Shown: positions 1-64,000 of the stretch, piece after piece | Numbering within the stretch: the stretch's first letter is position 1 | Layout: every line of letters starts with the position of its first letter | DNA from: Bilabrum cf. latius | Taxonomy: Eukaryota | Direction: 5' to 3' | Length of the DNA: 64,000 nt | NCBI GenBank assembly: GCA_965178125.1 | Contig: OZ237749.1 | Location: forward strand, 372,001-436,000 | Notes under the pieces: generated by a model | What the model was told of the DNA's origin: nothing | The model's database searches: none | What the model saw: the letters and a program-made list of their open reading frames with translations, nothing else | Made by a program: the position numbers and the translations under genes

Positions 1-3000
1 CCCCGGTCTCGTCGGAAGCTTTCAGGGCACCACCGCCGGCGGCGCTGGGTGGAGGTTGCAGCCCCCGGCGCGTCCCAGCCTTGGCTTGCAGGGAGCCAGA
101 GGGACTTGAAGCTGTGCCCCCACCTGTCTTGGCATCAAGCTTTCCGCTGCTACTCGCAGACCTGTCTGCCAGTCCAGCGGTGAGGCCTGCACGTAGACCG
201 AAGCGGTCCTTGGACCTCGACTGTTCCAAGCGACGGCGCAGCTCCTGCTCCTGTTTCTTGGCCCTCTGCTTCTTGCCCATGCCCGGGCGGCGCACCTTGG
301 TTCTAGCTCGCTTGGCGCTGCGCACGGCCTCGGTTGCAATCTCCATCGCAGCCTCCATGCGGCCTGCAGCTGCAGTGCCCGGCTGAAACACGTCGAACGC
401 GTCTGCTTCCACCTCTTCCCGCACCATGTCAAGGCGCGACTCGCACTGCTCAAGACGCACGACAGCACCCTGCTCCGTCGAACGCATCGACTGGGCCTTG
501 GAGCGAGCCCCCTCTCGCAACATCTTTAGTACCTCTGCAGAAGCCTTGCTCCACTGCTCGCAGCCTTCGGATAGCTTCCTGAGGTGCGCCACCGACTCTT
601 GGTACTCTTGCATGCGGTTCTTCCTCTCTGTCATTGGAACGAATGCGATCACAGAGGCGCGCCTGCCACGGCGTCGCCTCGGCGGGGACGATGAGCGCGG
701 GCCCGAGAGCGCCATGCCGCCAGCCTTGCCGAATCCATGACCCGCGCCGCCGCCGCCATTACGCTCCAATGCGTGGGCAGCGGCAGCCGCAGCACCAGGT
801 CGGCGGCCCTCCGCCGCTAGCACTGCCACAAAGTGTGCCTCTGCCGCCGCAGCGCGTGCTCTCCTTGCCTCCGCGATGTCCTTCTGCGCCTGTGCTACGC
901 GCTCTCTCCACTTGTCTGGAGTTGCCAGCGCCTCGCGGATCTTGCCCCTGTCGGGGGCATCGCTCATGGCGCGGCTTCTGCTGCCGCCGCTCTTGGCAGC
1001 CGCCGCGCGGCCGACCGCCTGCAAGAGGCCGGATTTTACCGCCTCCTCGAAGGCATGGGTGGCTCTCTCAGTGTCCCTGGCCGCGCGGTTGATCTTCTCT
1101 TCTGCTGTTTCCGCGTCGCTCTTCAGCCTCTGAAGCTCAAGGAACAGTTCTGCCCGTCTGCTCTCCACCTCTTCGGTGTGGGCAGTCACCGCCTCCTCCG
1201 CCTCGAAGACGTCCTCTAGCGCGCGATCGAGGGCCTGCTTCAGCCTAGCGAGTGCGTCTTTCTCGTGCGAGGTGACCGCAGGGGTGATGCTGGCCCTGGA
1301 GGCATCGTCCCCAAGCCCTACAGGCGACTCTCCGGGAGGAGGTGCGCCCAAGTGAACAGCGTTATGCTGCGTACGCTCGGCCTGCACAACGGCCTTCTCG
1401 GCCTTGTACTCTGCCTCGAGCTCCGCCTCTTGCTGTGCCTCGAGGACAGCGCGCGCCAGCTCCCTCTCAGGCATCTCTGCCGTGGTCACGCTCCGAGCCG
1501 CAGTGTTCAGCGCGGTCACGGCGGTGGCACCGGCTTCCTTCAGGCGATCGTAGCGCTGAAACTGCGTGACTAGCCTCCGCCTGCACAGCGACATGGTCTG
1601 CGCGGTGCGCAAAAGTTCTATCCTGTGCTGCAGCCTGCCGTACAACACCTCGGCCCGGGCCACTGCGTCCACGGCTGGCGGCACTGACGCCATAAATTCC
1701 TGCTGCAAGGCCCTGTCGAGAGCGCCTGCGCCAGCTAAGCCAGTCATCTTCTCGATGCTGCGGGTACGGGCGAGGCCCCCGGAGCCGGAGAGCCCGCCCG
1801 TGCTGAGCTGTCCTCCTCCTCCCGATCCACCGCTCGCCTTGCTGCTCCCGTCATCATCACCGTCCCCGCCGTTGGCAGCGACATCCCCATCGCCGAATCC
1901 AAGCCCGCCGGACCTGCCCCCAGAGATACCCACCTCTTCCTCGGCCAGCTGCACGGTGGCCATCACGAGGTCGATGTCATCGTCCTCGTCGCTCCACTCT
2001 GTGCCCTGGTCGCTGTCTTTCTCGAAGAGCTGAGCCTGCACCATCTCAGCCGCATCCACGGCGGCTTCCGCAGCATCTACTCTGGCGACGAGCAGCTGAA
2101 TGTGCCGCTCAAGCGAGAGAACAACTGCCGGATGCGAGCCCTCCACCAGCCCCTGCCCCTCTTCCTCGGCGGTTCGGATGACCTCCAAGGCGGCCTCCCT
2201 TCCCTTTCTCCTCGCCTCTTTGTGGGCCGCGAGGCTCTCGCTCGCGGATCGCGCGATGGAATTGGCCCGTCCTCTCTCCTGCTTCAGCCTCGACATCAGG
2301 TCCTCCATGGGACGGTTCTCGGTTGCCATGGATTCCACGCGGTCCCTTGTCACAACGTGCGAGACGCTGGTGGCGCGCATACCCGTGGAGGCAGAGATAG
2401 CCGTGGCGGCGGACGCGCCCGACCTCCGCTCTACGCTGGAGGAACGTTCCTTTTCTTCCTTGTCGATGCCTTTCTGAGCCAGCTGGTTCAGCGCGTCTCG
2501 CTCCGCCCTGTCCTCCGCCATGGCGGCGCGGTTGGCGATCTCAAAGACAGGGCACGGGGCCGGGTTTCTCTTGGTCGGGTTCTCCTTCCGCACGTCGTCG
2601 CGCCTGTGACGGAGCTTCGAGAGCTGAACGGATACCCTGGCCAGCGCCGCGGAGGCCCCAGCGAGCGTTTGGAGCTCCATGTTGGTCTGGTGCAGCTGCA
2701 GCCTCCTGTGGTGCTCCTGCATCCTGGCGGTGCGGCTGGCCTGCTCTTCGGAAGTCAGCTTTCCCTGCATGATGTCTTCGATCGTCCTGGCGCGAGCACT
2801 GGCCTGGTACCCCCTCCTCAGGACGGAATCCGACCGCCCTCGCGTCATTACATCCAGTTCGCTGGGCAGCTGCGGGATCTCTTGACCTCCGCCGTTCGAG
2901 AATGAGCTGACGGAAGGCATGGACGAAGCTACGGTCGCGCCAGTGGCGGAGGGTTTGCTATCGCTGCCTGCCCCCGCGGCAGCTGCGCCGCTAGAATCGC

Positions 3001-4315: not shown

Positions 4316-4905
4316 GCCTTCAGCAATAACTGGCTACGCTAGCAGCGACAGTCACCGGAAAGCTCTCGAGTGGAATGCTGCAATGCTCCTTTCACTGCCA
4401 GAAGGGGGAGCTTCAACCGGCGGTCTGATTCAAGAAGTACTGTTTGTATCCAGCGAGAGTATCCTTGGCCGAGGAGGCAGCAAATTGCAGCCGTCAACTC
4501 GCCCCAATCTTGTGGCCGCCGATGCATTGTCGGAGTCGGCAGTTGGTCGCAAACTATCTGGCAGTCACGGTGCGGGGGATCGAAGCCTGAGGTGCTGTCG
4601 AGTATGAGATTGGCTCATCCAGCAATGCTTGCGCCCAGCAGGTATGCGCGTCCGCGCATTTCCACTACCGCCGCGGCTCCATTCGCGAAAGCCGTGCTGG
4701 ACGTTTGCTTGGCTCAGTGTAATTGAAAATTTGCATGTCTTGCTGAATGCGCGGCGCCATAGCGAGACTGATTTGCGGAACTCAATTGCTCCACGCTGAG
4801 ATTAAATTTTCTGCCATAGTGTTGCGAGCAAACGCGAAAACGAAACCATCACTATAATATTTTGTGCCCCGAGCACCTTCATCCCTCCCTGCTTGCTGGC
4901 TACGA

Positions 4906-6150
4906 ATGTGGTTGCTATTGACGGTTCAAGTTGCTGTTGCAGCTGCAACTTCTTTGCGTCAGCAGCCCGGGCCTTGGCCCAACTGTTCACATGCAGGCTT
5001 ACCAAAGCAATCAATGTATGCTATCAAAGTACTCGACCGATACGCAGCGGCTACGCTCGGAAGTTAGGCGCTCATCTCGATGCAGAACGGCAGCAGCGCG
5101 TTCAATTTCTCTTTCAATGCGGCTTGGTTTCCGTCTCCGAGAAGCAATGATCTGAGCAGAGATGCAGGAGGCGGACTCATTGTTCGGGCTGTAGAATGCA
5201 ACCCTAATCACCACCCATGCCCCAAAGCAAAGCACCCGGAATGGTCCAACGCAGGTGCACTCGCGGCAGTCAACGCAAGCTTTGACCAAGAGGTACCCAA
5301 AGCTGGGTTCGTGGGGCAACACAGCATATTTTGGGCAGGAGTTCCTCCTCCGCCATCTTCCAATTAGAGCCGATGGGGCGCTGCCGACCCCAGAATCAGG
5401 TATCGGCCGAGCAACGGCGTGTACTACTTGACGTGGGACAACTGCACGCGCAACTGCTACCCCACCCGCTCGACCATGCTGTCAACGACGAGAACTCCTA
5501 TGATTCACGATTCGTGGACCTTTCATGGCCCACTGCTTCCTGGAGAATACACGGGAGGCGCTGCCCTCCTGTTCCGAGACGAGCACGAGCAGGATTCGGA
5601 ACATTTTGTCAGTGGCAAGCAGCAGCAGCTGCGGGTGGAAGCGCATAGCAAGCACCTGGCATTCGTTTCTGATTCTAATACGGCCCATGCTATCCTCCTA
5701 GCCGAGTCATCTGACGGAATCCACTGGGAGCTGGCCAGCGACCCTGCCCAGCGCACGTTCATGGAAGGTAGGAGGGGCTGCTGGGACGTGTCGGGGGTCG
5801 CACCCGGGCCCCAGCCGGAGAGGCTGAGCACCGGTGACTACTTCATGGTGTACAACATCGACACGGGGTTTCCGTGGAAGGGGAATCCGCTCGGGCGGTG
5901 CGCTGTGGGGTGGGCGATTCTAGACGGGTAGGACCCAACTCGTATCGTGGCTCGCTCGGACGGCCCCATGCTGCTCGCATAGGCGCCATGGGAGCAGTGT
6001 CTGTAGGAGACGTATGCTTGCCAGGAGACAATGGTGGTGTTCTCCACCGGGATGAAGCCGCTCGGAGGGGACGAGTTCATGGTAGTGTACGGAGGCGGTG
6101 ACACGGACGTTGGGATCGCCAAGGTTAAGGTTGAAATAGACAGCATTTAA
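4906..6150 (+). CDS. Secreted GH130-like (five-bladed beta-propeller) glycosidase/phosphorylase, about 414 aa
   Basis: Starts with signal-peptide-like MWLLLTVQVAVAAA. Motifs WGAADPRI..YYLTWD, GVAPGPQP.RLSTGDYFMVYN, VGWAILDG.DPTRIVARS and VVF..G....GDEFMVVYGGGDTDVG. There are five in-frame TAGs (5065, 5365, 5929, 5980, 6004). Ends at TAA 6148-6150. Confidence 0.75.
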
Positions 6151-6530: not shown

Positions 6531-6545
6531 AAACCACACAAAGTA

Positions 6546-7348: not shown

Positions 7349-10300
7349 TCATCCACCAAAGGACCAGAGGGAAGGAGAGTGAGCCCGAGCCATCCTCGTA
7401 AGGACAGCCGGACCGTCGACACATGCCATCCGCCACCAGCGGGACGTCCATGTACGACGTAGCTACTCCCTTTCACGCAAGACACAGCGAAGCGAAGTCG
7501 CCATCTCACGCGCCCAGATCCTCTCAAGAGTATGCATGAGCCCTCTAGGGCGAGCCACACGATGTCCCCTGCGATCCTGAGCTCGCATTGCAGCATACAG
7601 GTCATCCGATGAGCTCGCAGTCCAGCCTCGCACCGAGGCCCCAGTCCACCACCTGCAGGCAGTCCAGGACGGAAACGTTCTGATCTTTACACTCAGCTCA
7701 TCAACCACCAGTGTCGCAAGCCGTACCAATCCAACAGAGGCGCTAGAGCGGGCAATTGCTCGGCGCATCTTGGGAATGGTTCGCTCAGCAGCAGCGACTC
7801 CACGCCTGTCCTGCTCCAGAGGTTGTGGGTGAGGTTCAAGACGTAGGCCATGGTCCGCCCATGCCTTCCTTATCTTGCCCTTCTCCTCTGAAGTTCGACT
7901 GGCCCAGTCACCGGAGACCCACTCTGCCTGAAGACCACGTGACTGCAGCGATGACTCTCGGCGAGTCATCTCCACAGCCACCTTGTCAGTCAGCTCTGGA
8001 GTAGGGGAACAGGAACGAGGGTAAATACCCGCACGAACACGAAGGATCAATCGCCCGTCGGAGCCACGCAGTTGCAGTGCTGCAGTGGTAGGCAGTGAAC
8101 CAGGGCCGAACACCCCATCAACCTGACCATGGTACTGGTCCAGTGACACTGTCTGTTCTGCATTCTGCTGCCTGATTGCGCTCGCCAGGACGTAACCGGA
8201 GTGGCATCCAGGGCTCAAGTTCCTGAAAGACCTGATGCTAGAAGCAGACTTCGACGAGTGCCAACGGCGCACCGCTCGATTCAGCTCCTTCTCACCCAGC
8301 CAAGTCACTCCGTTGTCAACAGATACTCCATTGTCATGAAGGTGAAGCCTGAGAGACGCCGCAGCACTAAGAGGTCCCTGCTGCGACATCTACTGGCACA
8401 TGTATGCAGTCCGGATGTAGTGAGATACCACTGGTAGACCCCTCCTATCTGGGGCTCGCATGAGCTCAAAGAGGTCCCGTGCGGTCCTTCCGGCAGCACT
8501 CGCAAGCCATACCTCAGAATCCAACGCCACTTTCGGCAAGCGACGTCCTTCGACGGCAAATGGCATACGGTCAGCCATTCCAGTGGCCAGCATCCACCTC
8601 ATGCGTGCCAGGAAACGGTCCACTACACTCAGCACAGCTGCATTCATGATCACGCCGTAGTTCACAGAGATCCGCTGTTCCAGACCTCGGAAGCGTTCCC
8701 AGCCAGTGGCGCATCCAGCAGCACCAATGCCATAGAGCGCGCTTGTGAGCGCTCCAGAATAGAGAATCTGGGAGTGTAGACGAACCGACCAATCACAGTC
8801 AACTGCAGCGCGGGTTATGATGGACGCTTGTTGCATCGCCATTGCCACCCTTCGCCGAACGTGGGGGACCATGTCAATGGCTATCACGTCCCTCTCTTCG
8901 TAGCCGGGCCCAAGCTCTGCTGCTGTGGCATGGATCCTCGTCGTCGATATCAGCAACCCTAGATACACATACGACTTCGCGCGGGGAACGGTCCATGTCT
9001 GTTCTACCCATGATGGGTTCACTTCCGTGGCTGTACACGCGATATCGTCGTCCCACCCACGGGGAAAGGAGTCGGCTGCAAGTCCAAACGGCATCATGGC
9101 AGTCTTCTTCGCGAGCCCTGATGGACTCACTGGTCGAAATCCAAGCTCAAGCCCGGCCAGTTCGAACAGCTCAGTGACGACCGCGACCACCTGACAGGCC
9201 TCCGTCCATGTCGTTGCTGCCGCTACATAGTCATCTGCATAGCCGCACTGTCCCCAAGGAGTACCTCTACATCCTGGTGACGGTTGTAGTACATGAGAGT
9301 GTCCCAAATCTGAGCGCTCTCTCGCAATGGCCTCGAGGAGGACCCCCATGAAGACGAGGAAGAGCGCCGGTGAGAGTACTTCTCCTTGCGGGGTCCCAGC
9401 CTCCTTCTGGATTGGCCTGGATGTCTTACCAGTTGCTGAGTCCCTGATCCGGACCGAGACCTTCAGTCGTGACAGAAGGAAACCAGTTGCCTGATCTCCC
9501 CAGCCCTGAGCCTTCATGATCGCTTCCATGATATTCCACTGACAGCTGTCAAAAGCACCCTTCACATCAAAGAAGATAAGGACCCCGCCGTCTAGTCCAC
9601 GCTGTCGGACCCACTCAAGCACGGTGCAGTAAGCTTGCTAGCAGTTCTTGCCAACCCGAAACCCAGCTTGGTCGAGGCCGAAGAGTCCATGCTGTTCACA
9701 GTACTCAACGACCTTAGCGTTTGCTACAAGACTGATTGTCTTCGAGAGCACCGAAGCGTAGCAGATAGGTCTGAACTCGTCCACCTTGGGGCTCTGGCCA
9801 GGTCGTGGGTTCTTTGCAACTGGGCGCATGAATGCTGCCTGGAAAACCTCTGGCTAGACCCCGGTCCGCAACATGAGGTTGTAGATCCCACGCAGCAAGT
9901 GGAGTACAACTGCCGGCCGTTTGGATCCTGAGGATTCATGCGGAGCTGCCCTACATCTCTTCAGCAGGGACGGATTGATGTTGTCCGGGCCTGTGGCTTT
10001 GTTCTCGCCAACCACATCGATGGCAGCATCGATCTCACGTACACTGCGGCACCACAGGTTCAGTTCTCGTGATGCTCTAGGCATGCTGCGTTGCACTCTG
10101 AGAATGAACTCTGTCGGGTCGATCTCCCTCCGGCGTGAGCTGTTCTCGAACTAGTCTGCATGCGCCTCAAGAATGCCGTCAAGGGTGGTGACTGGAGTTC
10201 CGTTCCGTAACACAATCGCCTCTAATCCACTGATGGCCTTGCAGGTCACCTGACGGGCTCTGTCAAGCTGCTCGCGGATGACACGGTACGCCCATCAAAT

Positions 10301-11985: not shown

Positions 11986-12372
11986 CCGCTGAAATACAGA
12001 AATACAGAAATACATTGTTGGGTTAAGTTACCGAACCCGCCACAGATGCACCATATCTCAGGTGATCACCTGCAGCGGTAGGAGCCCTCATAAGAGGACT
12101 ACAAGACCCCCGACCGCTGACGGGGCAACTTTGAAACGTGTACTTTGATCCACAAACCAGACCCGAACCGTCGGGTCGCCAATTGTACCATTGGAATCGG
12201 CGGCACAGCGTGAGTAAAGTATGAATTGCAGCCGGGTTTATTGTAATTACAATATAATTCTGACTTCTGGTCGGTTATAGGCGCTGAATGTCTTGTTAAT
12301 GGGAGTACTTGGGCTGCCCGATTCTATCGTTCGTTTGCAGGTACTTTCTTAGGAAAAGGCCAAGCACGCGTA

Positions 12373-28348: not shown

Positions 28349-28383
<35 letters not shown>

Positions 28384-32261: not shown

Positions 32262-32409
32262 AAGACACGCAACAACGCAGACCTTGTAGCAGTAGCTCCA
32301 CTGCCAGTAGTATACAGTGCTAACCGTGATATTTAGACCCAGCTTGGGGTGGCGAACCACATCAAAAGCAGGCAAAAATAGTCATATCCAGAACCATTGG
32401 CTAGCTCAC

Positions 32410-48900: not shown

Positions 48901-51900
48901 TGCTGTTGCTGCTGCCGCCCTTTACAGCGCATCCCAGATTTCTGGCTCGCTAATCGCTAACGTTTCCGGATCCGTCGCAACATCGATGGACACCGTCAGC
49001 GCTGGGGTGTCTCACTTGGCTGTTGATAGGGACTATCTGGAAGAGAGGGCGCACGTGGCGGGGAGCAAGTCCAATTCAAGCGCAGTCGATGACCTGTCCG
49101 CTGTGGCTGGTGAAATTGCTGGGGGCTTTGTGGGTGGGCTGATGTCGGTGCCACAGCAGACTGGTGCTGGTTTCCGAAGCGGCGGATTCGCTGGCGCTAG
49201 TGTAGGCTTCCTGACGGGCTCGCTGGGCACTCTGGTAAAGCCAACGGTTGGCTTGATTTCCGGGGGCGCAAGGTTGTTTTCAGGCGTCACGAAACTCCTT
49301 GATTCCCAGCTAGCACCAGAGGTGACCACTCGTGGTATCGTGCTCCCGAATTCGTGTGGAATACTGCTGACGAATCCCTCGCAATATGGAGGCAGTCCAA
49401 ACCGCATAGCGGATGCATCCGGTGCGGCCGAATCTCGCCCACCTGCGTCTGGTGCAGGCGGGAGAGACGATCGCGGCATCAGTGCAAGTCGCCAAGCATC
49501 GAGCAGCGATAAGTCAAGCGAAGCCGACGCCAAGGCACGAGAGCAGAGGGACACAGTCCGATATCGCAGAATAGGATGGGGTCCAGGTCATGCCGTGGTG
49601 CCCATTCGCGCCGACCACGCACTCCTTCGACTAATACTAGGAAGCTTGCGAGATGCCAACGGATCGGCACGCACAACCCAGGTGTCTAGGGATGGACCAG
49701 CCAGCCCCCCTGCGCGAGCTTTGGAGGGCAGGCGATCCTGGCTGTCCTCGGTAGGTTGCTCCCTTTCTCCGGGTGGACAGGCTGTCGTAGACTCGCCACC
49801 GACGCTGCATCGCAACGAAAGGTATGTTTCGCACTTTGTGTGGCCGACTGTAAGTTTCTCTTCACTGCTGGATGGTCTCCCCGGAGCAGGCAAAGGCAGG
49901 CACGTGCTGCAGCTTGATCGCAGCAACGACAGGCTAAGCATGAGCGTCATGCTTGTCACTACAGATCGAATCATGCGAGTTCGAATCGACCTCGATATGT
50001 GTTACAATGGCAGCAGCATGTACATTCCGTACGAAGCTGTGGCGGATATGAACATTGACAAGGTGCTGATCGCCTTGCAGCTGATTGCAGGCGCATCACC
50101 AGAGGGTTGGGACCGCGTGCTACACGGCGCCTCTGTGGAGTTTGAATGGACAGTGGACCTGGCTGGAGATGTAGCGCAGGGTCGGCACAGACACGAAGAA
50201 GAGACGCGGCTGCAGCAGGTGTCTGAAGACGTGAACCTGGCCATTGAGGCCATACTTGGGTCTGACCTCGAGGCGCAGACAGCGCGGGGTTCCATGATCT
50301 ACCGCGCTTTCCACTCATTCTTTTGTCAGATCGGCGGCACGCCATCCAACAAGGTTGGTGACTTGCCGGGTCTTGGAAAGCCGCCAGCAGCCGAACGAGT
50401 CTCCAGCACTGGATCAACACCAGCTAGCGGCTCCAGCGGCGCCGCGGCGGCCGCTGCTCCAAGCATAGCTGGTATTGCACGGCGGCCGCAGCTGAGTATG
50501 GATGACCTCATGCGACCTGTGGCCTCGAGGCCCGTGCCACAGGCCAGCATGCGGTGCGATTTTTCGGCTGATGCTGCGAGGCTACTTACGCAGCATTCCA
50601 ATCGCGCGATCCGAGCAGTGGAGGAGATCACCGGGGCCCGCATCGAAGTGCTCCCTGCGAATGACCTCGACGGTCGGGGCCCTAGAACTGTTGTCATCAG
50701 CTCGGAAAGCGTTGATATGTCAGAAGCTGCCAGGGACGCCCTGTATTCGAAAGTCGGCGCCTTGCGGGCTGCTATCGATGCCGGCGAGGAGACAGAGTCC
50801 GCCTACACTCGCATTCTGCCTGGGCCTGGCGGGGCACTGACGACGGAGGAGGAGGATGAGGATGTCGCCGCAGCTAGTTGTGCTACTTCTTAGAGTATTG
50901 CTGGACAGGGTCTGGGATACGGGGCTGCCAGTACCGCTAGACTGGCGACCAGCAGTACGTCTGTAGCAGGGTTGCAGGCTATGAGGCTGTTCTCAGCGAC
51001 TGGGGGCTTTGCTGCTGGTGCTATACCAGAGGTAAGCGAACCATCGTTGTCTCCCCGCATCAGGCGCAGTGCTGGGGAACCAGCCGTTGCTTTACTAGCG
51101 TACAGGCCGCTGTTCCACCCCTGGGCTGTAATCGGTCTGAGCCTTTCGTTTGAGCGAAAGTTTCGAGCGTGGCAACGCCAGGCAGATGCACTGAGGCGGC
51201 AATTGGAGGCGCTGCGGCGCTCTCGGTAGGCCTCTGGTGTGACCAGTACGAGCGGTGCTGGCGGTGCGCTTGCTAGCTCAGGCATCAGCGGTGAGGGTGG
51301 TGACGCCTCAGGTCATGGGTCGGGCCTTGATCCCATGCGGCCCTGGCTTCGATTAGTCGACGCAGAAGAGTGCGACCTGTTGCAGCTAGCGGCTGCGGAG
51401 GTTGCGACCGGTGAGGACGTAAAGGTAAGAGGGAAGGAGCCCAGGGGCATGATGCCGCTTAGCACGTTCGAGGCTCTTGCTACGGCGGACCTCTCCGAGC
51501 CTGTCGCTTGCTTGCAGGCCATGGATTGTCGGCTGCATCCTGCTGCAAACAACGTCTTGTTCCACGCCGCGTACCGCCGCGCCATCGTGCGATGCACCGA
51601 GGCACACGATTCTGTAAGGATGGTACAGAGTGGTGCTGGTTCTGGTGCTGCTGGTGGTGCCCCTGCACGCGACATATTCGAAGAGGAAGGCATTCGACAG
51701 AACCTTGTCTCTTTTCTTTTGCTACTCGCGAGGCCCTCCCGCTTGCTCGAATGCATATTTTTCGCTCGAGCGACCGTAGCTCGGGAGAGCCTAGCTGATG
51801 AGTACCGCACCTCGGGGCACGATGAGGTCGACGCAGGCATACGAGAGCTGCACGATTCATTGCGGAGGGGGCTCGGGACGATTTTTGCTGTGCTTGAATT

Positions 51901-51919
51901 CGTTAAGTCTGAAGCGTGA
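36974..51919 (+). CDS. VPS13: VPS13-family bridge-like lipid transfer protein, about 4950 aa (intron 37424..37513)
   Basis: Chorein-N-like start (LLQAKLGAVFD..WLHGGIHLEDLSL..LRVKGG), ASYFNQRLECFEPLMEPF, VAB-like PILLKNATNFSL and PSVVIVNELP, FGWDS, and ATG_C-like GF..GSLGTLVKPTVGL. The 14.4-kb second exon is open in one frame apart from about 45 TAGs. Ends at TGA. The start may instead be 37013. Confidence 0.88.
46560..46690 (+). repeat. 18-bp coding tandem repeat GCTAGCACCAGTGAGCCA (ASTSEP, about 6 copies) in VPS13
   Basis: Directly visible. Confidence 0.9.
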
Positions 51920-52205: not shown

Positions 52206-53012
52206 ATGTCCGATACAACGCAGCCAAAGCTTCAACGGTAAGGTTATATGTATGTTTTCGAGTGGTCCACTTTTGCCGTTGCTTTAGGTGACGCGATGCT
52301 TTGACATGTTCGACTTGGCTATGAGGAGCGCAGAGCAATTAGATATATTCTCAAGGAGCAAGGTATTGAACACTTCGATGATGGGGTCATGGAATAGCTC
52401 ATGGATGTCGCAACTGGATATGCGTCTGAGCTGCTCGGAGAATGCGACAGAGTTCGCAGATACTCTGGAATACCGACAGTAGACCGGTTCGTGGCCGAAA
52501 CTGCAACTGATCTCGTCTAGTAGCGATGTGTAGCACCTGCAGCGTCTCGAGAAGACTAGCTCGCGGAGGCATTGGCTATAAACGACCGTCCGTTCGTACC
52601 GAAGGTGTCAGTGTCTCCGGCATACCCGACAGGGAGCGCCTGCCTGCTGCCGGTGCTGCCTGCTTCCCAGGACAAGCCTGGATCAAGGGCACTAATTCAA
52701 TCAGATGCATCTTTGACATATACAAAAGAGTATTACTTGCTGGATGAGCACGTCAGAAATCTGCGCAAGGCTTGGAGAGTAGCTTGCGATATTGAAAAAG
52801 AGAAGCGAGATAGAGACGGAAGCGCCGGCGCTCGCCCAGCCGGCAGGGCACCCACGCAGGCAACGGGAGCTGCAAGTTTTGCACCGTCCCTGTAGCGAGC
52901 CAACGCTGCCACGCAGTCACCTGCTGGCTCGGCAACGTGGTCACCAGACACCGGCAGTTTGGACCCAACAGCCGGGGGGGCTCGGAGAGGAGGGACTGGC
53001 GCGCCTGGCTGA
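52206..53012 (+). CDS. TAF9: TFIID subunit TAF9 (TFIID-31 histone-fold), divergent (intron 52238..52333)
   Basis: The spliced product reads PKLQRAIRYILKEQGIEHFDDGVME*LMDVATGYASELL...SRED*LAEALAINDRPF. This matches the TAF9 pattern I..IL...G...Y/F...V..QL(L/M)(E/D)....Y...L ... RE.L...A...N..P. Five TAGs. Ends at TGA. Confidence 0.75.
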
Positions 53013-53301
53013 CCCCGGCCAAGTTCTAGCATCGAGTTGAAGCTGTTTCTAGCTTTGTTTAGGTTTTAGCTCTGAGCACCGATTGCCAGCCATGCAACAT
53101 GCACCGCACAAAATGCCTTATGCAGTCGTCACGACTGCGACTGCTGCGCTAGCATGCAGCCTCCGCACACTGTGTAGAGGGTATTTCTATCATCGCGACC
53201 GTCACGTGTTTCGATAAACAACCAATCAACCCAACTCGTGGTCATCAGTACTCTCACACAGCGGTGTTTGGCACTGAATGGCAGCGGCAGTTTAGTTGAA
53301 G

Positions 53302-54741
53302 ATGTCTGATACATCCACCCAACAGGATGATGAGGATCTCCTCGCTGAATTTGATGATTTACTTGACAATACAACTGCTCATTCTGGCAGTGTCGTTGCA
53401 GGTGGCACGCCTGTGGCTGCGGCTGCAGATATCCAGCAGCAGCCTATCGGGGCTTCCTCTGCAGCCTCCACACTGGCGCCGGCAGGTGTACCACGAGTTG
53501 CCACAGCTGAAGAGGCTAACGCCGCATTCAACTTTGACCCGGACGCTGCATTGGCTGAAAGTCGCGACCACGTGAGAAGGTCAATGCTTTTGAATCCGTT
53601 GCAACTGTCCCGTGTGAGCGAATGCAATTCTAACCTTGGCACCACTAATACGTCGCAGTTTGACAGATTATTTGCAGCTGCGGTCAGCCAGCGGCGAGGT
53701 GATGGCTCCAACGGGGCCAGGCTGGTACCGAATGCAGGTTCTCCGCCGTCCGACGCTGCGGGCCTGGCTGTTCCAGCCGTATTGCCCGGCGGTGCATCAA
53801 GCTTGAGCCAAGGCTGCATGCAAGCTGACGCTGATTCTGACGATGACGAGGACGCCGCGACGCGGTCCATCCGAGCGCAAGCAGCTCGGGCAGCCTCGGC
53901 ACTCGGGCAGGCGCAAATGGAGAGGCGCAGGGCGAGGGAGCAGATCCGCAGCGGGGCACGGGCGACGGAGCGAGCCGAATTCGATAGGGCAATTTCACAA
54001 GCCGGGAGCGTTTGGGAGGTTGAGCGGCTCCTGAAGCGCCGCCAGGAGCAGCAGCGCGTGGACCGCGAGGCTGCGTTCGAACGCGTGCGGGCGGCTGTGG
54101 CAGCTACCGATGTCGACTTCGAGCATGTCCGGGACGCCGCCACAGCTGCCGGTGGCTCCGAATAGGCAGTGTAGTCTGCCGTACTTGCGACCACCATGCG
54201 CAGAGCAGCTGCCATACGGGCGAGCACCTAGCAAGAGCTCGCCGACGCAAGAGCAGTTTCGAGTGAAACGCGAGCCCGTGCACAGGAGGCTGCCCCGAGC
54301 GGTACTCCCTCCGGCCGCGCTGCTGCTCCTGCTGCCACCGCTCGGGAAAGGGGAGAAAGTACATTGCATCGCGACGGCCAAGCCTCTGGTTCAGGCTGCT
54401 AGATGGGCTCTGGGATGCAACACGTTCTCGCTGGCATCGTTGGCCGCAGAGGCACCGAGGCAGACACCCCATTAGGCAGCAAACCTGAGGTGGGCAAACC
54501 TGAGGTGGGCAAACCTGACGAAGCGCCATTCTCCGGCGAGTCCGTCGATGGCTCAGGTTCCACAGGCCCTTGTCGCCCGGAGAGCCTTGAGACGGCGCTC
54601 GAGGAGGCAGACAGGAGGGTCCTCGAGGACACAACAGCGAGCGCGGATAGGGTGCATGGCGCGGTGCTGCGGCAGATCCAGAGCGCGTTCTCCGGACCCG
54701 GAGTGGAAATCGAGGGTTTGGCCGTCGGAGAGTCGGGCGAG

Positions 54742-54779
<38 letters not shown>

Positions 54780-55257
54780 GGGCGACGGTGGGGATCCTGT
54801 GAGCGCTGCTGCTGCTGCTGCTGCTGGTGGTGGTGCTGGACAAGGACCGTAGCGTGTGGGTGGGCCAGCGGGTGATGAGGGCAGGGTAACAGCATTCGAC
54901 ACCGCGGGGGGGCAGGGCCTCGTTGGATTCCTCGATGAGAGGCAGGGCGCGGCACTGGACCAGCTGCTGGACGAGCTCGGGGTTCCCGTTCCTGGTGACG
55001 ACTAGTCTGGAGCCGTCATGACAGGAGCCGAGGATGTAGGTGGCGGTGGGCTGACTGATGGCGGAGCCGCGAGGCAGGGTGGGTCCTCTGAGCTCGCAAG
55101 CGTTCTTGCGATGTTGGAATAGGAAGCAAGGGGGTCTAGCCGGGCGCGCAGTGCGCGGAGATCTACCGGCAGGACCCCGGCAAGGGGTGCTGTGGATGGC
55201 GCGGATGTGTATGCGGCATCAAGCTCGGGAGCCAGTGAGGGCAAGTCGCCCCAATAA
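53302..55257 (+). CDS. Uncharacterised Ala/Gly-rich protein, about 650 aa
   Basis: MSDTSTQQDDEDLLAEFDDLL... continues in one frame through about 6 TAGs (54163, 54172, 54400, 54850, 55003, 55120) to TAA 55255-55257. Confidence 0.7.
54742..54825 (+). repeat. Two (GCT)n poly-alanine microsatellites
   Basis: Directly visible. Confidence 0.9.
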
Positions 55258-55521: not shown

Positions 55522-57641
55522 TCATGTGTTCATACCCTGCGTCCCGTAGGTGGTCGTCCCGCCCCTGCCCATTCCTGAATCCTTCCCATCTCGTAAAAAA
55601 CGCTGGCCCCCACCGGCTGTCCCCGCATCTTGCGGAGACGGCCCGGATGAGGGCGAGGACCCTAGGCGGGCGTCAGCCTGCCTGGATCCGAATTCCATGC
55701 CTGCGAATGCAGGATCGTCAGTGTAGTCCAGCCCGTTCAGGCTTCCTCCCAGCGAGCTGTCAGAGCTGTCACGCCTGGGACCCTGCTCAAACGACTGCGG
55801 CTGCGCCTTACCACCATCCCCGAACGTGTCGCTGAAGAATCCCTTGCCGGATTGATTACCGCCGGCTCCCTGATTCCTCCCAAATCTGCGCTTCGGCGAC
55901 TCGTCCGCAGAGACCTCCTTCACCTTGGTGCCAGCTGCGGGATTCCTCACGTCCACCACCACCTTGTCCCCGTCAGAATCCTTCTCGGGCCTGAACTCGG
56001 AGAAGACCTGAGGGATGGGGTTGATGAGGTCCTCCTGTGTGAACTTGTCGATCGTCGACTGGGGCAGCTTCTCCACCTTTGAGAAATCGGCGCTCTCGAT
56101 CGTGCGGTACTGCTTGTAGATGTACCGCATCGGCAACACGCTGAATGCCAGCGTGTTCACGATCGCGCTGGCGACGGCGAGGAGTCCTAGTGACGTGACT
56201 AAGTTAATAAGAAGAGTGGGAATGTCCCACTGGCCCACGAGCCCCGTCTGCTTGACCACAATTCGAAGCCCGTGCCTGTCGATGATCGTCCTGTTGATGT
56301 CCTCCACACCCGGCTCCGGCGTCAGCTCCTCCCCCTTGTACTCTGCATTCTTGACTCTCTGCACCCTGATTGTGTAGGTGATATTATCCTCCTAGAAGGT
56401 CTGCTCGTTCGAGTATTCGATGGAAACGACGAGGACGGCCCCAGCGTATCGGATCGTCTCGTTGTAGAGATCAAAGTCCTCTGAGCTGCTCGCCCGGGCA
56501 TCCAGATCCGGGATGCCTGCGGCCTGCATGATTGTGTAGACGGGGATGATGTCTTTCTTTCCCTTGATCCCGACCTGCACAGTGTCTTTGTCGCACTTGC
56601 TGGGCTCGTTCAGAACCTTGTCGTACACGTCGCAAGGATCCAGCCAGTCCCCGTCTTGGTTCACGATAGCTCCGCTCAGATCAGCAGAGGAGTACGACAG
56701 GTCATATTCCGGGACCGACATGGTATGGTCGATCCACACCGTGAAGAGCTCCGGCTCGCCAAGGTAGTAGGTGGCCTGGTACACGGTCTTGTACCCGCAC
56801 TCTGGCCGCTCGAGGCTGTTGCAGTCGTCGTCGAACTCGTTCGAAGTCAAGTTGGCGATTCGCTCGTGGTCATTCTTGATACGAGTAGCCAAAAACGTCG
56901 CCTCTGCGGGTCTTATGGTGATATCATGGGGGTGTGCGAATTGTCAATAGTGGTACGCGTTGCAACGGAGTGGATAGAGGATGAGGTAGCTGCAGCAAAC
57001 AGGCACAGGCGGGCCAGCAGCAACCGGTGTCTCCGGCAGCGCTACGGCTTCAGGCTCCGGAACCAGATGCCTCACCTTGTTCAATAGAAGGATAAATAGC
57101 ATCGTTACCGTCCAAATACCGGCACGGCGCCATGATTTCAGTTTGCCCTGGGTTGCCCCCATGGATCGGGTACACCCCACTGGTCTGGTTTGCCCCGAGG
57201 CAGTACTCTAATTCCTCCGGAGGGCGAGCTACCATTCTGCTTGTACTTGGTCGTTGCAGCTGCAGCCTTGCTGTTCCAGTCACCTGGGCAGTCTTCCTGT
57301 ACCCTTTCTGGAGGACGACATTGAACCCAACCTGCGACGCTGGTGTACAAGGCATGCATGCGCTGAGGCAAACTCTAGGAAGCAGAAACCATACATACAA
57401 CCAATCAATATCATCTGTCCGGTTTCTGGGTATGGCGGCAGCAATTAACGGCAGTCTCGCAGAAATGCCACGCCGAAGTTTCCCCAGAACTGCTCCTCAC
57501 GACGTAACCGAAGATAAGAACCATAAAGGTCAGGTTCAATATACCGAGCTTTCTATCTTTGACCCGTACGAACCTTTGCGTTTCATAGGCAAACACTTCA
57601 TCGCAGTCTTGGCCGCAAATCGTATCGCAATTGCAGCTCAT
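55522..57641 (-). CDS. P2X: P2X purinergic receptor (ATP-gated cation channel), introns 57332..57500 and 56904..57075
   Basis: N-terminal FAYETQRFVRVKDRKLGIL (YxTxK/R motif), TM1, QKGY, FLATRI, ELFTVWIDH, RYAG..V.I.Y.N, RHGLRI..QTG..G.WDIPTLLINLVTSLGLLAVA and YKQY. GTGAGG donors and GCAG acceptors restore the frame. One TAG at 56392. Ends at TGA. Confidence 0.92.
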
Positions 57642-58015: not shown

Positions 58016-61000
58016 TCAAGCCGAGATCAGCTTGAGCTTGTCTCCATCGAGGCAGCTGGGATCCAGCGGCGCCTTGGAAATCACCGTAAGCGTAAAGCGC
58101 GCCTCCTCCCCCGGCGAGAAGGTGGCTGGACACACCGTGAGAGGCGATCCCTCTGGCTTTAGCTGCCCTTCCACAGACACCTCCCTGGCATACTGGAAGC
58201 TTCCAGTGCGCAGCCTGATCTTGGAGTTGTACCGCATGCGCTTGCCTTCGTTCTGCACAACCACAGCCCCGATCGCGTATTCGTAGTCCCTGCCGGACCC
58301 CTCCTCCTCGAGGATGCGAAGGGACAGGAACACGGTGCAGGGCTCCGACACCTGAAGCAGGTACTGAGGGTTCTTGAGCACTGCCGCGGTATTGGAGCAG
58401 CCTCCCGCGGTTTCACCCTTCCACTCGCCTGATGTGTGCGTGACGTGCCAGTCGCCGCCGTCGCTGATTGGCCTGTAGATCCGGCACACGTAGATCGTCC
58501 GATAGTTCCTGCAGAAATCGCTCCACTGCATGCACCACTCGCCATCGTCACCGCTGCCTTTCGGGTCATGATCCATCTCCCGCTTCAGCCTCGTGGTCCA
58601 GCGACTCGTGTCCGTGTCGCTGAATCGGCCCTTCCATTCGGTCTTGCCGTGGGGATTCCTGACCTTGAGCATGTGCAACTTGTTGCCCCTCCCATCGTCT
58701 GCGTCCTTCACGGCCAGGATAGAGAAGGCGTGGCCCTGCACGATACCCATGGTGTTGACCGTAGTGTCGCTGCCGCTGTGGCTGCCGCACGCCAGCAAGT
58801 GTCCGTCCTCGCTCAATTGCTTGACACGCAGCCACAGGGAACCGTCCGCGATCTCCTTCTTCGAATCGTCGAGGCTGATGCTCTCCCCGTACCCGCCGGT
58901 CAGGTCGGCCATGGCGTTGTGGCTCTGCCCGCCATCGATCGACTTGTAGCTGCCGTAGAACTTGGCGTAGGCTTTTTCGATTAGCATGGGCCACAGCTCC
59001 TTGGTGCGAGACTTGAGGAGCAGCGGCTTCGGCACGTATCCTGGCTTGTAGAACATCGCCTTGGAATCGACATAGATCGGCTGGAACTCCCCATTGAAGG
59101 CGAATCGGAAGCAGTAGACGCTCTTCTTGGTGAGCTTCTTTGTGATGAGCAGCCGCTCGATGAGCTCCGGATGGACCGCGCACGTGGCGACGGCAGCGAC
59201 GAACCAGCAACTGCGGGTAGAGAAACGCAAGGAGCGGCAGAAAGGTACACATGTAGCGGCCGCAGAGTACTGGCTGCATGCAGCTTGTGGTCGATGAATG
59301 CCAGTTGCGGGTGCCCAGCCAAGTAGGCATGCACGAAGGCGTGCGCGTAGCAAAGTCTCACTCTCCCAGGCTGCCTTGTACCAGGTCATCCGGGTCGATG
59401 CCCCCCTTGATCATGCCAGCTGCGAATCAAGTTGAAAGAGAAGGCACAAATATCAGTGATGTGCGGCATGTGTGCAACTAAATGGAAAAGCGTTGGCGTG
59501 GCGTAGCGACCACGCAACCCGAGCTTGCCATTGACGGACGGGTCATGGATATCCTAGGATTCTCACGCGTGTCATCTCCTCGCTTCACGAACCTCGAGTC
59601 CTCGAAGTGCTCCCACTCGCCGTACTCTGCCCAGCGCTTAACCATGCTGTCCTTCTTCGGGTCGGCACCGAACGTCTTGGCTCCGCTAAACTCCTTGTCC
59701 TCCCAGCGCTTCCCCGCCGGCACGGTGCCCTCCATCCTAGCAATCTCCTGCTTGATTTCAGCTTCCTGCTTCTTCAAGAAATCGCTGGTCTTGGTGGCCA
59801 TCTGCTGCCTCTTCTGCTCCTTGGCCTTGGCAGCCTGGTCGGCCTTCCGGCGGCGCTCGGCCTCCTCCTCCTCCTTCTTCTTGCGCTCCTGCTCGGCGGC
59901 ACGGCGCTTCTCCTCCTGCTCACGCCGGCGGCGGGCGAGTTCCTCCCTCTGCTTGCGCATGCGTTCCAGCCGCTCTCGCTGCTCCTTGAGCTTCTTCTCC
60001 TTGGCCTCCTACGCCTGGCGTCGGGCCTCGGCCTCCTGCTACTGGCGACGACGCAGCTCGTCCAGCTGCTGCTGCGAGGCGCGCTTCTTGGCTTCGTCTT
60101 GCTCCGCTTCGTGGCGGCGCCGGGCCTCGGCCTCCTCTTCCTCGAGCTTCTTGCGACGAGCTTCCGCCTCGGCTTCCGCCTTCTTGCGCGCCTCCTCCTC
60201 CTACTTTCGCTTGCGATCCAGCGCATCCTGCTCGCGCTTGAGACGCTCCTCCTCCTCCTTGGCTCGCTTGGCAGCCTCCTCCGCCTCGCGCTCCTTGCGA
60301 CGGCGCTCCTCGAGCTCCCTGCGGCGGCGGTCTGCCTCCTCCCTGGCCTTGCGCTTCTTGGCTTCGAGCGCCTCCCGCGCCTTCTGCCTGCGCCTCCTCG
60401 TGGCCTCTTCCTCCTCCTTCTTCTTGCGCTCCTGCTCGGCGGCCTCCAGCGCCATCTGCACGTCAAATGTCTCCATCAGCTTCATCAGCCTGCGCATCCT
60501 GTCGCTGGCCTCCACCTGTCCCAGCTGCGTGGTCCAGTACGTCTTTAGAGAGGCGCGAGAGCGGAGAGCCCGGGCGAGCGAGTCGGCCTCCAAGGCCAGG
60601 GGGCTGTCAAGATCCAGGGACTGCGCGGCGCGCTGCATGGCAACCAAGATGGTGAGACCCTGGTCGCGGATGTGCGGGGCTGCCTTGTCCGACAGGATCC
60701 ACCGCATGAAGTCGTCCCAGTGCATGCGCGAGTCGACCACTGCAGCGATGCCTGCGTGCGTGATGGAGGAAGCTGCGCCTGCCAGCAGCCTCCACTCTTT
60801 TGCGGCCACCCTGTACTGGCATGTGTAGGCCGCCTTGAGTGCCTTCTCGCCCAAAAGCATGGCCTGAAGAGGATCCTGAAGGGCACCCTCTACCGCGCAT
60901 ATGCGGGAGATGTGCCCGAGCTCCATGGGCGCGGCGTCTTCGGCGCTGATCAGAAGGGACATGTGCGCCCATCCGCTCTTGCGGCGCTTCTTGTTGTTGC

Positions 61001-64000
61001 CGTGCATGGGGTTCCGCACGTCAATGGCACCCGGGTGAGCTACCGTGGCATCGTCCACTGGCTCATCAGCGTCTACGTGAGCAGCCGCCGCGGCCCCGCC
61101 ACCCTTCTTTGCTTCGCCTGATTGGCTGCCTGGTTCGGTGGCAGATCCCGTCACTGGTTTGGAGCCCTCCCCCGCCTGCTTCGCTGACTGGTTCCCTAGC
61201 GCGTGCTGCACGACCCTGGATGCGAGCTGGATGGCCTTCATCAGTTTCGACTGAGCGGCCGCCGGGACCTTGATGTCGGATGCACCGAAGGAGTCCTTCT
61301 TGCTCTTGCTCTTGCCCTTGCTTCCACCGCTCTTACCACCCTCGGCACCCTCGGGTTTCTGGGACGCGGACCCACCCTCCTCGCCGGCCTTGTTGCCGCC
61401 AGCAGACGAGGAAGAGTCCTCGTCGCTGCCGGTGCTGCTCTGCACTGGGACCTTCTTGCCATCGGGCCCGTCGTCGTTCAGGATCTCATCGATGCAAGGG
61501 AGTGCGCGGTTGACGATACCCACCGCTGCGTACACCTCGGAAAGCGCCGACTCGATCTGGATCAGCTCTGCATCCAGGGCGATGGAAGGCAACACCTCGA
61601 CGCTGGAAGGCACCAGTGAAGTCCTCTTCGCCACAGCGCCACTGGCCTGATCCTCGGATGAGGCCTGGTTGAACAGCTTCTCCACCAGAGTTACGGGCGC
61701 CCGGGTCTTGCTGGCGTCATCGGGCCCGGCCGGCCCCTCAGCCGTTCCCCTCACCTCGCCCCCAACCACAGCACTCTCGTCCTCCAGCTGTCCCGAGCGG
61801 TTCATCGCATCGGACAGGAGGGCCGAGACTCGGTGCTTCTTCTGGTCGCTCCGCTGCGCCGTTCCCGCCTTGGACGACTCACCGGCCTGCTCCAGGGCCC
61901 CAGACCACTGCAAGATCGCCTCTCGCATCAGCACGCGCAGGCTGCCGGTGCCCTGGGCGAGGCTCTCGCGAGCCGAGGAAGAGCTCTTCTCACCCTCGGC
62001 ACCTTCACCAGCCACGTGAGCCGAGCTGATCTGCCGCTTCCGCATTATCCTGGCGTGCTCCTCGTCGATCAGCTCGCATGCCTCGTCTACCATCGACTCG
62101 GTGCGCCTGACTGCGTGCAGCGCTGTCAGCACTCCAAGCGTGGTGCAGATGACGGCAGCCATGACACCGAGGTAGGAAGGACTGACCACCATCGCAAATG
62201 CGAGGCCCCACACAAGGCCCATGGCTAGGCCAGCCACGATGGAGATGAACGGAGTGTTGTCCTCGACCAGCTCATCGGCTTGGAGATCGTGCCTGTAGGC
62301 AGGGAGCACGAACGGGCTGAACAGGAGCGGACCATCAGCCGCAAGCCCGCGACCCAGCGAGTCTTCCGGCGCGCGGAAAGGATCCGCACTGAACACGCCT
62401 GCTCGCAGCAGGCTCATCACACCATACCCAATCAGAAGCACTGCAAGCAGCCACCAGCTGGCCGACAGGCACGCCACGATCACCGCCAAGGAGCCATCCC
62501 TAACGTAGAGCACGGCACCGACGACGATTCCGGCGACGACAAACAGCATCACGACGCCTCCAAAGGCATAGTTCACGGCGGGAGGCAGGTAACCGTTGTG
62601 CGCCAGAGCGTATACAATCGTGCAAGTCACAGCAAGCCCGAACAGGTAGGCGACCAGCACACCGGCGGTCACGGCGACGTTGTTGAAGACAGCGTTGGAT
62701 GCCGCGATAAAGCCAATGATAACCAGCTGCGAGATCAGCAAGCACATGTACACGAACGTCGCAGATTGGGACTTTGACTTCTCCTTGGCCTCTTTGAGCT
62801 CGTCGCGACGCACGGCCGACTTGGATCTCGTCAAGTCGCTCGGCCCGTCGCCGCCAGCGGCTGGCTGGTTGCTAGCTGCAGCGGGCTTGGGCCGTAGACA
62901 AGCGAACATGTTGAAGAGAACTCCGGGCGCGGTCACACCTGGCAGTTGCCACTCCTCGTCTGACCACTTGTAGGCAGCAACAAGCGAAAGGATGAGCGCT
63001 GGGTACAGGAAGAAGGCGAAGAGAACAGCCAGCAGGTTCGTCCCGGCTCCTTCCACGTTGTCACTGTTCTGCTGGCCGTAATCAGCCATGATCGGGATGT
63101 GGCAAGCGGCGTGCAATGCACCGGCAATCACGAACAGGAGAATCTGCACGATGCGCAGCTCCAGCAGACCGAAGTACATGCGGACAGCCACAAAAACGGT
63201 GGCCGAAGCAAGGAGCATGCCGGCGGCATACCACGCCCAACGAATCGGCTTGAGACCAACAGCCACCACAGATGCAAACCCGACGAGAATACCGACTAGC
63301 AGAAGCGTTCCAACCAGCATCATGGTGTTCCTGAGCTAGTTTGCGCTCAGAGTACACGACTGCACGTCCTGCATGATCTTGCCGACAGAAGGCAGCTTCA
63401 GCTTCTTGGCTTCTCCATCCTCGTCGCCGAACTTTTTCTTCGTGTCCTCGTCTTCAGGCGTAGGCTTCTCGTCCCCCTCTTTGTCGCCAGAGTCTCCCCC
63501 GGCAGCACCGCCTCCAGATGCAGACGCCGCGGCAGCTCCTCCCCCGGCACCGCCAGCATCTTTGTCGGCCTCTTTGTCCTTCTCACCCGAGTCATCCTTC
63601 TTGGGTTCATCTTTCTGAGGTCCCTCTTGTTCATCGTCTTCGTCGCTGTCGCCATTCTTGGCCTTGCCATCCTCGTCGTCCTCGGTGACCTCGATTCGGC
63701 CGCACATCGTGTTGGCCGCACAGCAGCAGGGAAACCAGCCGTACCCGCCAGGAAGCACCACCGAGTAATCGTCCGACTGCAGCTGCCCGTACAGCGCAAG
63801 GAAGAGCACGTAGGCTGCGGGCAAGAAGCAGAGCGAGCCCAGGATGATGTACGAACGCGTGGCCGCAAAGAGCATGCCACCGAGACCGGCACACCCGACT
63901 ACGAACACCACCGCAGTTACCCTTGTTCCCAACGACACGATCCGTCCGCGGTCATGCCTCAGGAAGAAGTGCAAGAAGAACAGCCCAAAGCACGCCAGGA
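58016..64000 (-). CDS. Multi-transmembrane calpain (DEK1-like): TM region, coiled coil, CysPc and C2L domains. The 5' end is beyond the window. Introns 59420..59566 and 59211..59361
   Basis: Splicing gives DDLVQGSLGDCWF (catalytic Cys), LWPMLIEKAYAK, GIVQGHAFS (His), KVRNPHG (Asn), and C2L motifs GEWKGETAGGC..NPQY and PATF.PG. Many hydrophobic helices lie upstream. TAGs at 63336, 60201, 60039 and 60009. Ends at TGA. Confidence 0.92.

Follow-up and report, generated by a model that had tools for sequence, protein, structure and literature searches.

UAG as a sense codon, probably for glutamine, beside UAA and UGA stops in a GC-rich, non-ciliate nuclear genome

We have analysed a 64-kb stretch of nuclear DNA assigned to Bilabrum cf. 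latius (contig OZ237749.1, positions 372,001 to 436,000; hereafter the window) in which the codon UAG is used inside genes. Frame counts, spliced contigs and relatives strongly support UAG as a sense codon, with UAA and UGA as stops, and so bear out the core claim of an earlier note made from the letters of this DNA. The best single guess for the meaning of UAG is glutamine (Gln, Q), to which we give a probability of about 0.6. The change is strongly supported as a further member of the rare class of nuclear codes in which UAG alone is reassigned, here in a non-ciliate eukaryote rich in guanine and cytosine (GC), and the residue is probably Gln.

UAG and UAA almost always change meaning together; the papers cited below record only a handful of exceptions among nuclear lineages, namely Scotinosphaera, Iotanema, a rhizarian and several ciliates. 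One more such lineage, with genomic DNA and apparently RNA-derived data in public runs and at least two relatives that share the trait, would bear on how the release factor eRF1 drops UAG while keeping UAA, and could show which tRNA captured UAG and how TAG codons spread; these codons are rare in the most conserved genes and are kept at some sites between relatives. Were UAG to mean lysine (Lys, K), or were its meaning to differ between relatives, the lineage would become a test of the 'unassigned codon capture' model. There is also a practical side, in that standard-code annotation of this assembly will break most long genes, and genes of the relatives already stand in public protein collections as fragments cut at TAG.

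In-frame TAG was tallied over 19 stop-to-stop frames with 18,376 codons in all, a tally that is an upper bound since frame ends may include intron or untranslated sequence. It comprised 112 TAG (~0.6% of codons), matching the figure of about 100 given in the earlier note, and neither a TAA nor a TGA. A giant open frame of 4,809 codons (37490..51919, + strand) holds 44 TAG, no TAA and no TGA before it ends in TGA at 51917-51919, and the two off-frames of the same stretch carry 138 TAG, 49 TAA and 212 TGA (261 for TAA and TGA together). TAG is mildly depleted in the giant frame, at 0.9% of codons against 1.4% off-frame, while TAA and TGA are wholly absent. Under the standard code the longest frame of the window has 1,191 amino acids (aa). 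With TAG as sense it has 4,809 aa, and the frames of at least 1,000 aa go from three to seven. With TAA as sense there is hardly any change in the ten longest frames. Reading TGA as sense lengthens many frames, as expected because the commonest stop of GC-rich DNA is then removed, but the longest of them has only 1,247 aa.

Protein families, which were named through Pfam profile matches and, for the weaker ones, through the PDB, carry on across the TAGs. This holds for the domain of a GH130-like gene (4858..6150, + strand; PF04041), which has five in-frame TAG, and for the histone fold of a TAF9-like exon (52333..53012, + strand), which has five TAG, four of them within the Pfam match, and ends in TGA. 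The Pfam frame of the latter is listed at 52305-52700 (+ strand), and with its TAGs masked as X it scores 30.3 bits on PF02291, above the Pfam cut-off. Translation passes through UAG in all the classes of gene met in the window. TAG is missing from the most conserved frames (0 of 465 codons in a calpain, 0 of 167 in IF4E) and frequent in fast-evolving ones, a distribution that fits a codon re-entering genes via mutation at tolerant sites.

The 19 frames end 14 times in TGA and four times in TAA, with one running off the window edge; the TAA ends reported earlier at 6148, 25101 (- strand) and 55255 are all present. Four gene ends, from four genes only, have homology or RNA backing, and each is TAA or TGA. 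For the GH130-like gene the stop is the TAA at 6148-6150: alignments to the 30 nearest homologues reach within 0-5 residues of it, and homology persists downstream of three TAGs that all lie within the last 75 codons. A DGAT2-like frame (30828..32381, - strand; DAGAT family, PF03982; one TAG) has a Pfam match that extends to residue 514 of 517, where the profile is at position 294 of 297, and its TGA stop follows three codons on. In the calpain gene (58016..63998, - strand) the Calpain_III match reaches position 136 of 137, with TGA shortly after. The TGA of the giant frame sits within a spliced contig that extends 74 bases beyond it.

Eight public sequencing runs contain the stretch or part of it; none is recorded as RNA, and one is marked 'probably DNA'. 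Contigs of the runs X5 and X8, from two studies, join 37423 to 37514 and 52236 to 52333, so that two GT..AG introns are removed, and both introns are retained in contigs of the runs X1 and X6. The first is a spliceosomal intron of 90 nucleotides (nt) upstream of the giant exon (37424..37513, + strand), with the end letters GTAAGT and CAG. The second, of 96 nt, lies in the TAF9-like gene (52237..52332, + strand), where the joint fits GT..AG with the cut moved by one. As X5 and X8 yield contigs without introns that X1 and X6 keep, we take these two runs to be RNA-derived. The gene to which the giant frame belongs as last exon begins further upstream. Of the 44 TAGs in this frame, 43 lie under listed X5 pieces, which show no other letters there; the remaining one, site 626, is in a 63-nt gap that the listed pieces leave. 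Parts of the DNA that X6 and X8 leave uncovered were given no weight. TAG letters are identical in contigs of four runs from four studies. The earlier note had named mRNA with CAG at these sites as evidence that would speak against a code change, and the spliced contigs keep TAG. Consensus error and RNA editing of the consensus transcript are excluded, which is a statement about that transcript: contigs drop rare variants, and low-level editing could escape. A tandem repeat (Ser, Thr, Glu, Pro, Ala) at about 46583-46675 breaks the X1 and X5 contigs alike (46608/46658); this break is a repeat that short words cannot bridge and no gap in the gene.

The giant protein (~4,800 residues) is very fast-evolving or lineage-restricted. 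Searches with its full length through a word index and with 1,200 residues exhaustively turned up no homologue of near length, and gave four fragments only, from two relatives, which came from searches of shorter proteins and cluster representatives. Scans of genome contigs and viral contigs with an alignment of two relatives gave no match, and no internal paralogue of the giant frame was found in the window. Pfam placed the protein in no family except for a sub-threshold match to KH_1 (19.5 bits). It had been labelled VPS13, a label that we drop, as the Pfam VPS13 domain was not found.

Two of the fragments are from a close relative. P0141, which is 85% identical, starts directly after TAG site 1511 and stops directly before site 1799, and P0143, 88% identical, stops directly before TAG site 1062. 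Gene callers that use the standard code cut at stops, so that stop codons, presumably TAG, most likely stand at 1511, 1799 and 1062 in the close relative; its fragments are consistent with the UAG-sense pattern. The other two fragments, P0142 and P0144 (39-46% identical), lead to the metagenome loci L001 and L002, and P0145 and P0146 are the sequences of P0142 and P0144 with different starts. The matching frame of L002 runs for 2,761 codons with 40 TAG and neither TAA nor TGA, while the other two frames hold 34 TAA and 128 TGA. L001, 99.8% identical to L002, contributes 1,373 codons in which the only stop triplets are 14 TAG. The window protein aligns with L002 over ~2,600 residues at 33% identity, and both have TAG at the aligned sites 626 and 2064. 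The trait is therefore common to at least two organisms, and probably to three. TAG density is 40/2,761 = 1.45% in L002, against 0.9% in the window orthologue.

The residue was sought with substitution frequencies taken from the window-L002 alignment itself, the residues that face TAG being scored per candidate. Over the 63 pooled TAG sites, unfiltered, the log-likelihood was 5.0 nats for Q, -5.1 for serine (Ser, S), -7.5 for K and -10.9 for arginine (Arg, R); Gln came first at every context filter and won 50-88% of bootstraps. The TAG sites of L002 taken by themselves also placed Gln first at every filter. In the window protein the residues opposite these 35 sites include Q 6, A 5, S 4, R 4, V 4 and E 3 but no K, and their partner codons one step away from TAG are CAG 4, GAG 2 and TTG 1. 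At the 28 TAG sites of the window, unfiltered, Gln is again first, with Q over K by 3.0 nats. When each sense codon was masked in turn as a control, 53 of 61 were recovered; the six Ser codons and the six Arg codons were all among them, by margins of 10-23 nats. Tyrosine (Tyr) and tryptophan (Trp) rank near the bottom of the residue test, and hydrophobic partners (L, V, I, M, F) face four of the 28 window TAGs, against 77% at true leucine (Leu) sites. Comparing how the two orthologues are composed of amino acids gave no indication of the residue.

Conserved families add a second line of evidence. With each candidate placed at the TAGs of the TAF9-like frame, PF02291 gave 34.2 bits for Q, 32.9 for L, 30.3 for X, 30.2 for K, 30.0 for S, 29.7 for R and 29.5 for E, and the first TAG alone (52395-52397) gave 30.4 for Q, 28.3 for K and 27.6 for S. 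Fly TAF9 (1taf_A) has Q opposite this first TAG, in an alignment whose expectation (E) value, with a shorter query, is only 1.3. The RVT_1 and DAGAT scores vary by about 1 bit each and are neutral; those of GH130 spread over 7 bits, with glutamate (Glu) at the top (45.3 bits) and Leu lowest, and are uninformative, the model being a distant one. Within the giant frame, the flanks of TAG are like the flanks of Gln or Leu and unlike those of Lys (~0.01) or Ser (0.01-0.02).

Gln is favoured because of the TAF9 site, the pooled test, the Gln signal of L002, the two shared TAGs, the flanks and the prior, Gln being the commonest fate of UAG. Cytoplasmic translation reads UAG as an ordinary sense codon and apparently keeps UAA and UGA as the sole terminators, UGA being the commoner. 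On the Gln reading, which corresponds to NCBI table 15 and the Iotanema type of code, it would do so through a tRNA with anticodon CUA that is charged by glutaminyl-tRNA synthetase, and through an eRF1 without UAG recognition. A diffuse residue signal at variable sites is to be expected, because canonical Gln codons occur only 20-44% of the time in Gln-dominated columns (Panek et al., PMC5304391).

Several results weigh against Gln. In the masking control both Lys codons were miscalled as Gln, so that the lead of Q in the pooled test says little against Lys; given the control outcomes, the pooled test excludes Ser and Arg well but splits Lys from Gln poorly. Opposite the 28 window TAGs stand S 7, R 5, L 4, K 3, A 2, Q 1 and a further six residues once each, and their partner codons one step away are AAG 3, TCG 3, GAG 1, TAC 1 and CAG 0. 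At the well-aligned window sites, of which three filters leave 17, 15 and 10, K or R stands over Q by 5-6 nats. In the set of 17 the partners include R 5, S 4, K 2 and Q 1, and K leads Q by 4.8 nats; in the set of 15 it leads by 6.1. The K-minus-Q statistic of the 17 sites was reached by 0.7% of draws from true Gln sites, by 0 of 400 from Ser, by 67% from Lys and by 30% from Arg; for the 15 sites true Gln draws reached it in 5%, and without a filter the value is in keeping with Gln. Opposite site 1036 there is K in the close relative and R in the distant one, and opposite site 1725 it is R in the close and K in the distant one. Among the 30 nearest GH130 homologues, the residues at the five TAG sites are mainly A, G, S, T, D or E, with a slight lead for Ser in the scores. 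The flanking test is confounded, as TAGs avoid low-complexity tracts, and the within-protein version was the one used. A position-specific flanking classifier called TAG Leu and was set aside: it made the same call for Gln, asparagine and histidine, and thus mainly shows low-complexity avoidance. Table 15, which the earlier note had suggested, stands as the best single guess, with the well-aligned window sites favouring K or R.

These same sites are the substance of a reading in which UAG means Lys here, by way of a CUA tRNA derived from tRNA-Lys, and Gln in the distant relative, so that one release would have been followed by two captures. We consider it unlikely but a serious rival, with several points in its favour: the K over Q margins and the draws just given, in which true Lys sites reach the 17-site statistic in 67% and true Gln sites in 0.7%; the three Lys partners, all three of them AAG and hence one step from TAG, beside no CAG; and the K or R of both relatives at sites 1036 and 1725. 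Related ciliates have also been reported to differ in the meaning of UAG (PMC11687900). The TAF9 score for Lys is 4.0 bits below that of Q, and 2.1 below at the first site alone; the 28 unfiltered sites put Q over K by 3.0 nats; Lys fits the giant-frame TAG flanks poorly (~0.01, in a confounded test); and the two TAG sites shared with a Gln-reading relative argue for a single inherited meaning. We know of no nuclear code with UAG = Lys, which gives Lys a low prior. Somewhat less likely again is the full picture of an unreported GC-rich non-ciliate clade in which UAG was freed once and then went to Lys here and to Gln in the metagenomic relative. It would comprise the first nuclear UAG = Lys code and a 'floating' codon outside the ciliates, with a meaning that differs between relatives.

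The remaining explanations are all improbable, to increasing degrees. UAG might have no single meaning, if eRF1 had lost UAG and the codon fell to near-cognate tRNAs, those for Gln, Lys and Tyr among others, with mixed residues as the outcome. The window TAG partners are a mixture of S, R, L and K, eight of the 28 codons that face these TAGs differ from TAG by a single step where 12% would be expected, no TAG occurs in the frames conserved best (calpain, IF4E), and in yeast UAG is reportedly read by the near-cognate tRNAs for Gln, Tyr and Lys. Yet 44 TAG in one protein and ~0.6% of codons overall would imply a highly heterogeneous proteome, relatives conserve TAG sites, those of L002 give a clean Gln signal, and the small sample suffices to explain the mixture. 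A little less credit is due to another single residue, namely Glu, Arg, Leu, Tyr or Trp. Arg equals Lys at the well-aligned window sites, Glu tops the GH130 Pfam score at 45.3 bits and Leu is second on TAF9 with 32.9 bits. Against Leu are the four of 28 hydrophobic partners, where true Leu sites have 77%, and the worst GH130 score; Arg and Glu reach 29.7 and 29.5 bits on TAF9 where Q reaches 34.2; none of the Arg codons is one step away from TAG, and arginyl-tRNA synthetase needs C35, which is absent from a CUA anticodon; Tyr and Trp stay near the bottom of the ranking. Ser, as in the green alga Scotinosphaera, with the window from that or a similar lineage, is very doubtful. It is slightly best at the five GH130 sites, where small residues dominate, it accounts for seven of the 28 window partners, three of them TCG, and the stop pattern of Scotinosphaera is the same, with TAG as sense and TAA and TGA as stops (PMC8271138). 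Its pooled score is nevertheless 10 nats below that of Q, and a Ser meaning should have surfaced, since all six true Ser codons were recovered at 10-23 nats. True Ser draws reach the observed statistic in none of 400 cases in well-aligned columns, Ser is 4.2 bits below Q on TAF9, the TAG flanks reject it (0.01-0.02), the close relative shows K and R and no S, and the nearest named GH130 homologues are from choanoflagellates, Picozoa and an entry labelled Hpha, with no green algae. That there is no code change at all, and that the TAGs are assembly or consensus errors, edited sites, marks of decayed pseudogenes or cases of occasional programmed readthrough, is scarcely credible. We found no support for it, beyond the fact that the library type of the spliced runs is not recorded and that one of them is marked 'probably DNA'. 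It has to face the same TAG letters in contigs of four runs from four studies, intron-free contigs that retain TAG, a decay that would bring TAA and TGA too where 18,376 codons have none, and an independent metagenome relative with the same stop bias.

Published nuclear codes in which UAG alone is reassigned include those of the rhizarian exLh (Leu) and of Iotanema spirale (Gln; PMC5304391), of Scotinosphaera (Ser; Li et al. 2021, PMC8271138), and of Protocruzia tuzeti (Gln) and phyllopharyngean ciliates (Leu, and Gln twice; PMC11687900); a ciliate with UAA = Lys and UAG = Glu has been described as well. The list in the earlier note was incomplete, as Scotinosphaera (Ser), Protocruzia and several phyllopharyngean ciliates have been published too. 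A literature search, which left aside most subscription journals and supplementary tables, found no report of a GC-rich non-ciliate with this code.

The window most resembles Iotanema spirale (Fornicata; Panek et al. 2017, PMC5304391) in that UAG alone is reassigned there while UAA and UGA terminate, in that UAG is not seen as a terminator there, nor among the ends traced here, and in that UAG means Gln, the best-supported meaning here too. The two differ in that Iotanema ends 104 of 119 genes in UAA (PMC5304391), whereas 14 of the 19 window frames end in TGA and four in TAA. They also differ in kind: Iotanema, a gut flagellate and an anaerobe, is known through its transcriptome, whereas the window is nuclear DNA of 59% GC with relatives in metagenome collections. 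Protocruzia tuzeti and the phyllopharyngean ciliates likewise reassign UAG alone, to Gln or Leu, and keep UAA as a stop, and among ciliates close lineages differ in the meaning of UAG, as a Lys meaning in the window would require (PMC11687900). The window differs from ciliates in being GC-rich, with introns of 90-96 nt and, over its 64 kb, ~19 frames spread across both strands, and from its GC, gene layout and intron size we infer that it is not ciliate-like. Ciliate genomes are AT-rich, and the chromosomes of phyllopharyngeans are gene-sized.

The stop pattern of Scotinosphaera (Ulvophyceae), with TAG as sense and TAA and TGA as stops, is identical to that of the window (PMC8271138). Its Ser meaning fits the window poorly, and the GH130 homologues show no sign of a green-algal affinity; a Scotinosphaera-type code was rejected on the 10 nats below Q, the 0 of 400 Ser draws and the TAF9 deficit of 4.2 bits. 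The window also shares a polar UAG, probably Gln, with code 6, in which UAA and UAG both mean Gln and which occurs in hexamitin diplomonads, some ulvophytes and Amoeboaphelidium protococcarum. Code 6 was rejected on the lack of any in-frame TAA in 18,376 codons and on the TAA that is the homology-confirmed GH130 stop. In Amoeboaphelidium TAG and TAA both mean Gln (PMC6299283), and its genomes have 40.5% and 39.9% GC (PMC10608142) against 59% in the window. The rhizarian exLh resembles the present case as a UAG-only code met as an unplanned passenger in the data of other organisms (PMC5304391). Its Leu meaning was rejected on the four hydrophobic partners in 28 against 77%, and on the lowest GH130 Pfam score.

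The window has a GC fraction of 0.54-0.65 per 4-kb step and of 59% over all bases. A search for tRNA genes across the 64 kb found none, and an Rfam scan of the same DNA matched no family and no rRNA. The window has no eRF1 gene either, nor a marker gene suited to placing the organism. Among the families named earlier, GH130, DAGAT (DGAT2), calpain, CNNM with CBS, and TAF9 were recovered by Pfam, which added IF4E (25521-26021, - strand), MAPEG (26142-26738, - strand), RVT_1 and EF-hands. A PDB search with the 235-aa TAF9 frame gave only H2B at an E value of 0.82, and the TAF9 label rests on Pfam, since the PDB offered that match and 1taf_A at 1.3. With the DGAT2-like protein the PDB search gave no match. 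The CNNM gene (27156..29817, + strand) consists of two frames, the CNNM domain and then CBS, which as open frames contain three TAG, and it stops at TGA. A P2X match is present, as had been proposed, in a frame with one TAG (55522..56943, - strand), at a weak 24.4 bits on PF00864 where the cut-off is 27. The earlier GT41 label applies to the C-terminal part of a frame of 1,589 codons with 13 TAG (16671..21440, - strand), which is weakly similar in the PDB to SPINDLY/OGT structures (5djs_A, E 5.8e-05; SPINDLY 7y4i_A, E 0.0027).

An EF-hand protein frame (32410..36162, - strand) has 1,250 codons and seven TAG. Further frames are a coiled-coil frame of 1,450 codons with four TAG that runs past the window edge (2..4351, - strand), one of 1,052 codons with one TAG and a TGA stop (21751..24909, + strand), and one of 659 codons with eight TAG and a TAA end (53278..55257, + strand). 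The calpain gene comprises two frames. The N-terminal one (59427-63998, - strand) is rich in transmembrane segments and has five TAG; the other (58016-59410, - strand), with Peptidase_C2 and Calpain_III, has no TAG and a TGA stop. The N-terminal part of the gene is long, with hydrophobic stretches and charged coiled-coil sequence before the protease and domain III, a layout that may resemble that of membrane-anchored (DEK1-like) calpains. An Atlas search with the calpain gave animal taxa at a coarse level only, which do not help to place the organism.

A frame of 1,388 codons with seven TAG (12247..16413, + strand) matches no Pfam family and would encode a secreted or membrane protein of no known family. 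It has a C-terminal low-complexity tract of Ser, Pro, Ala and Thr, followed by a hydrophobic stretch near the C-terminus, and its predicted product looks like a surface protein. The reverse-transcriptase frame of a retroelement (7349..10294, - strand; RVT_1, 51-54 bits) has 981 codons with five TAG and no other stop. The retroelement seems to follow the TAG reading of its host, which suggests long residence in the lineage. The GH130-like protein has 131 homologues, the best of them 57-59% identical; its named neighbours, at 52-55% identity, are too scattered for a placement of the organism, being the choanoflagellates Stephanoeca and Diaphanoeca, a picozoan and the transcriptome entry labelled Hpha. 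Such a patchwork suggests that marine heterotrophic protists have this gene in common.

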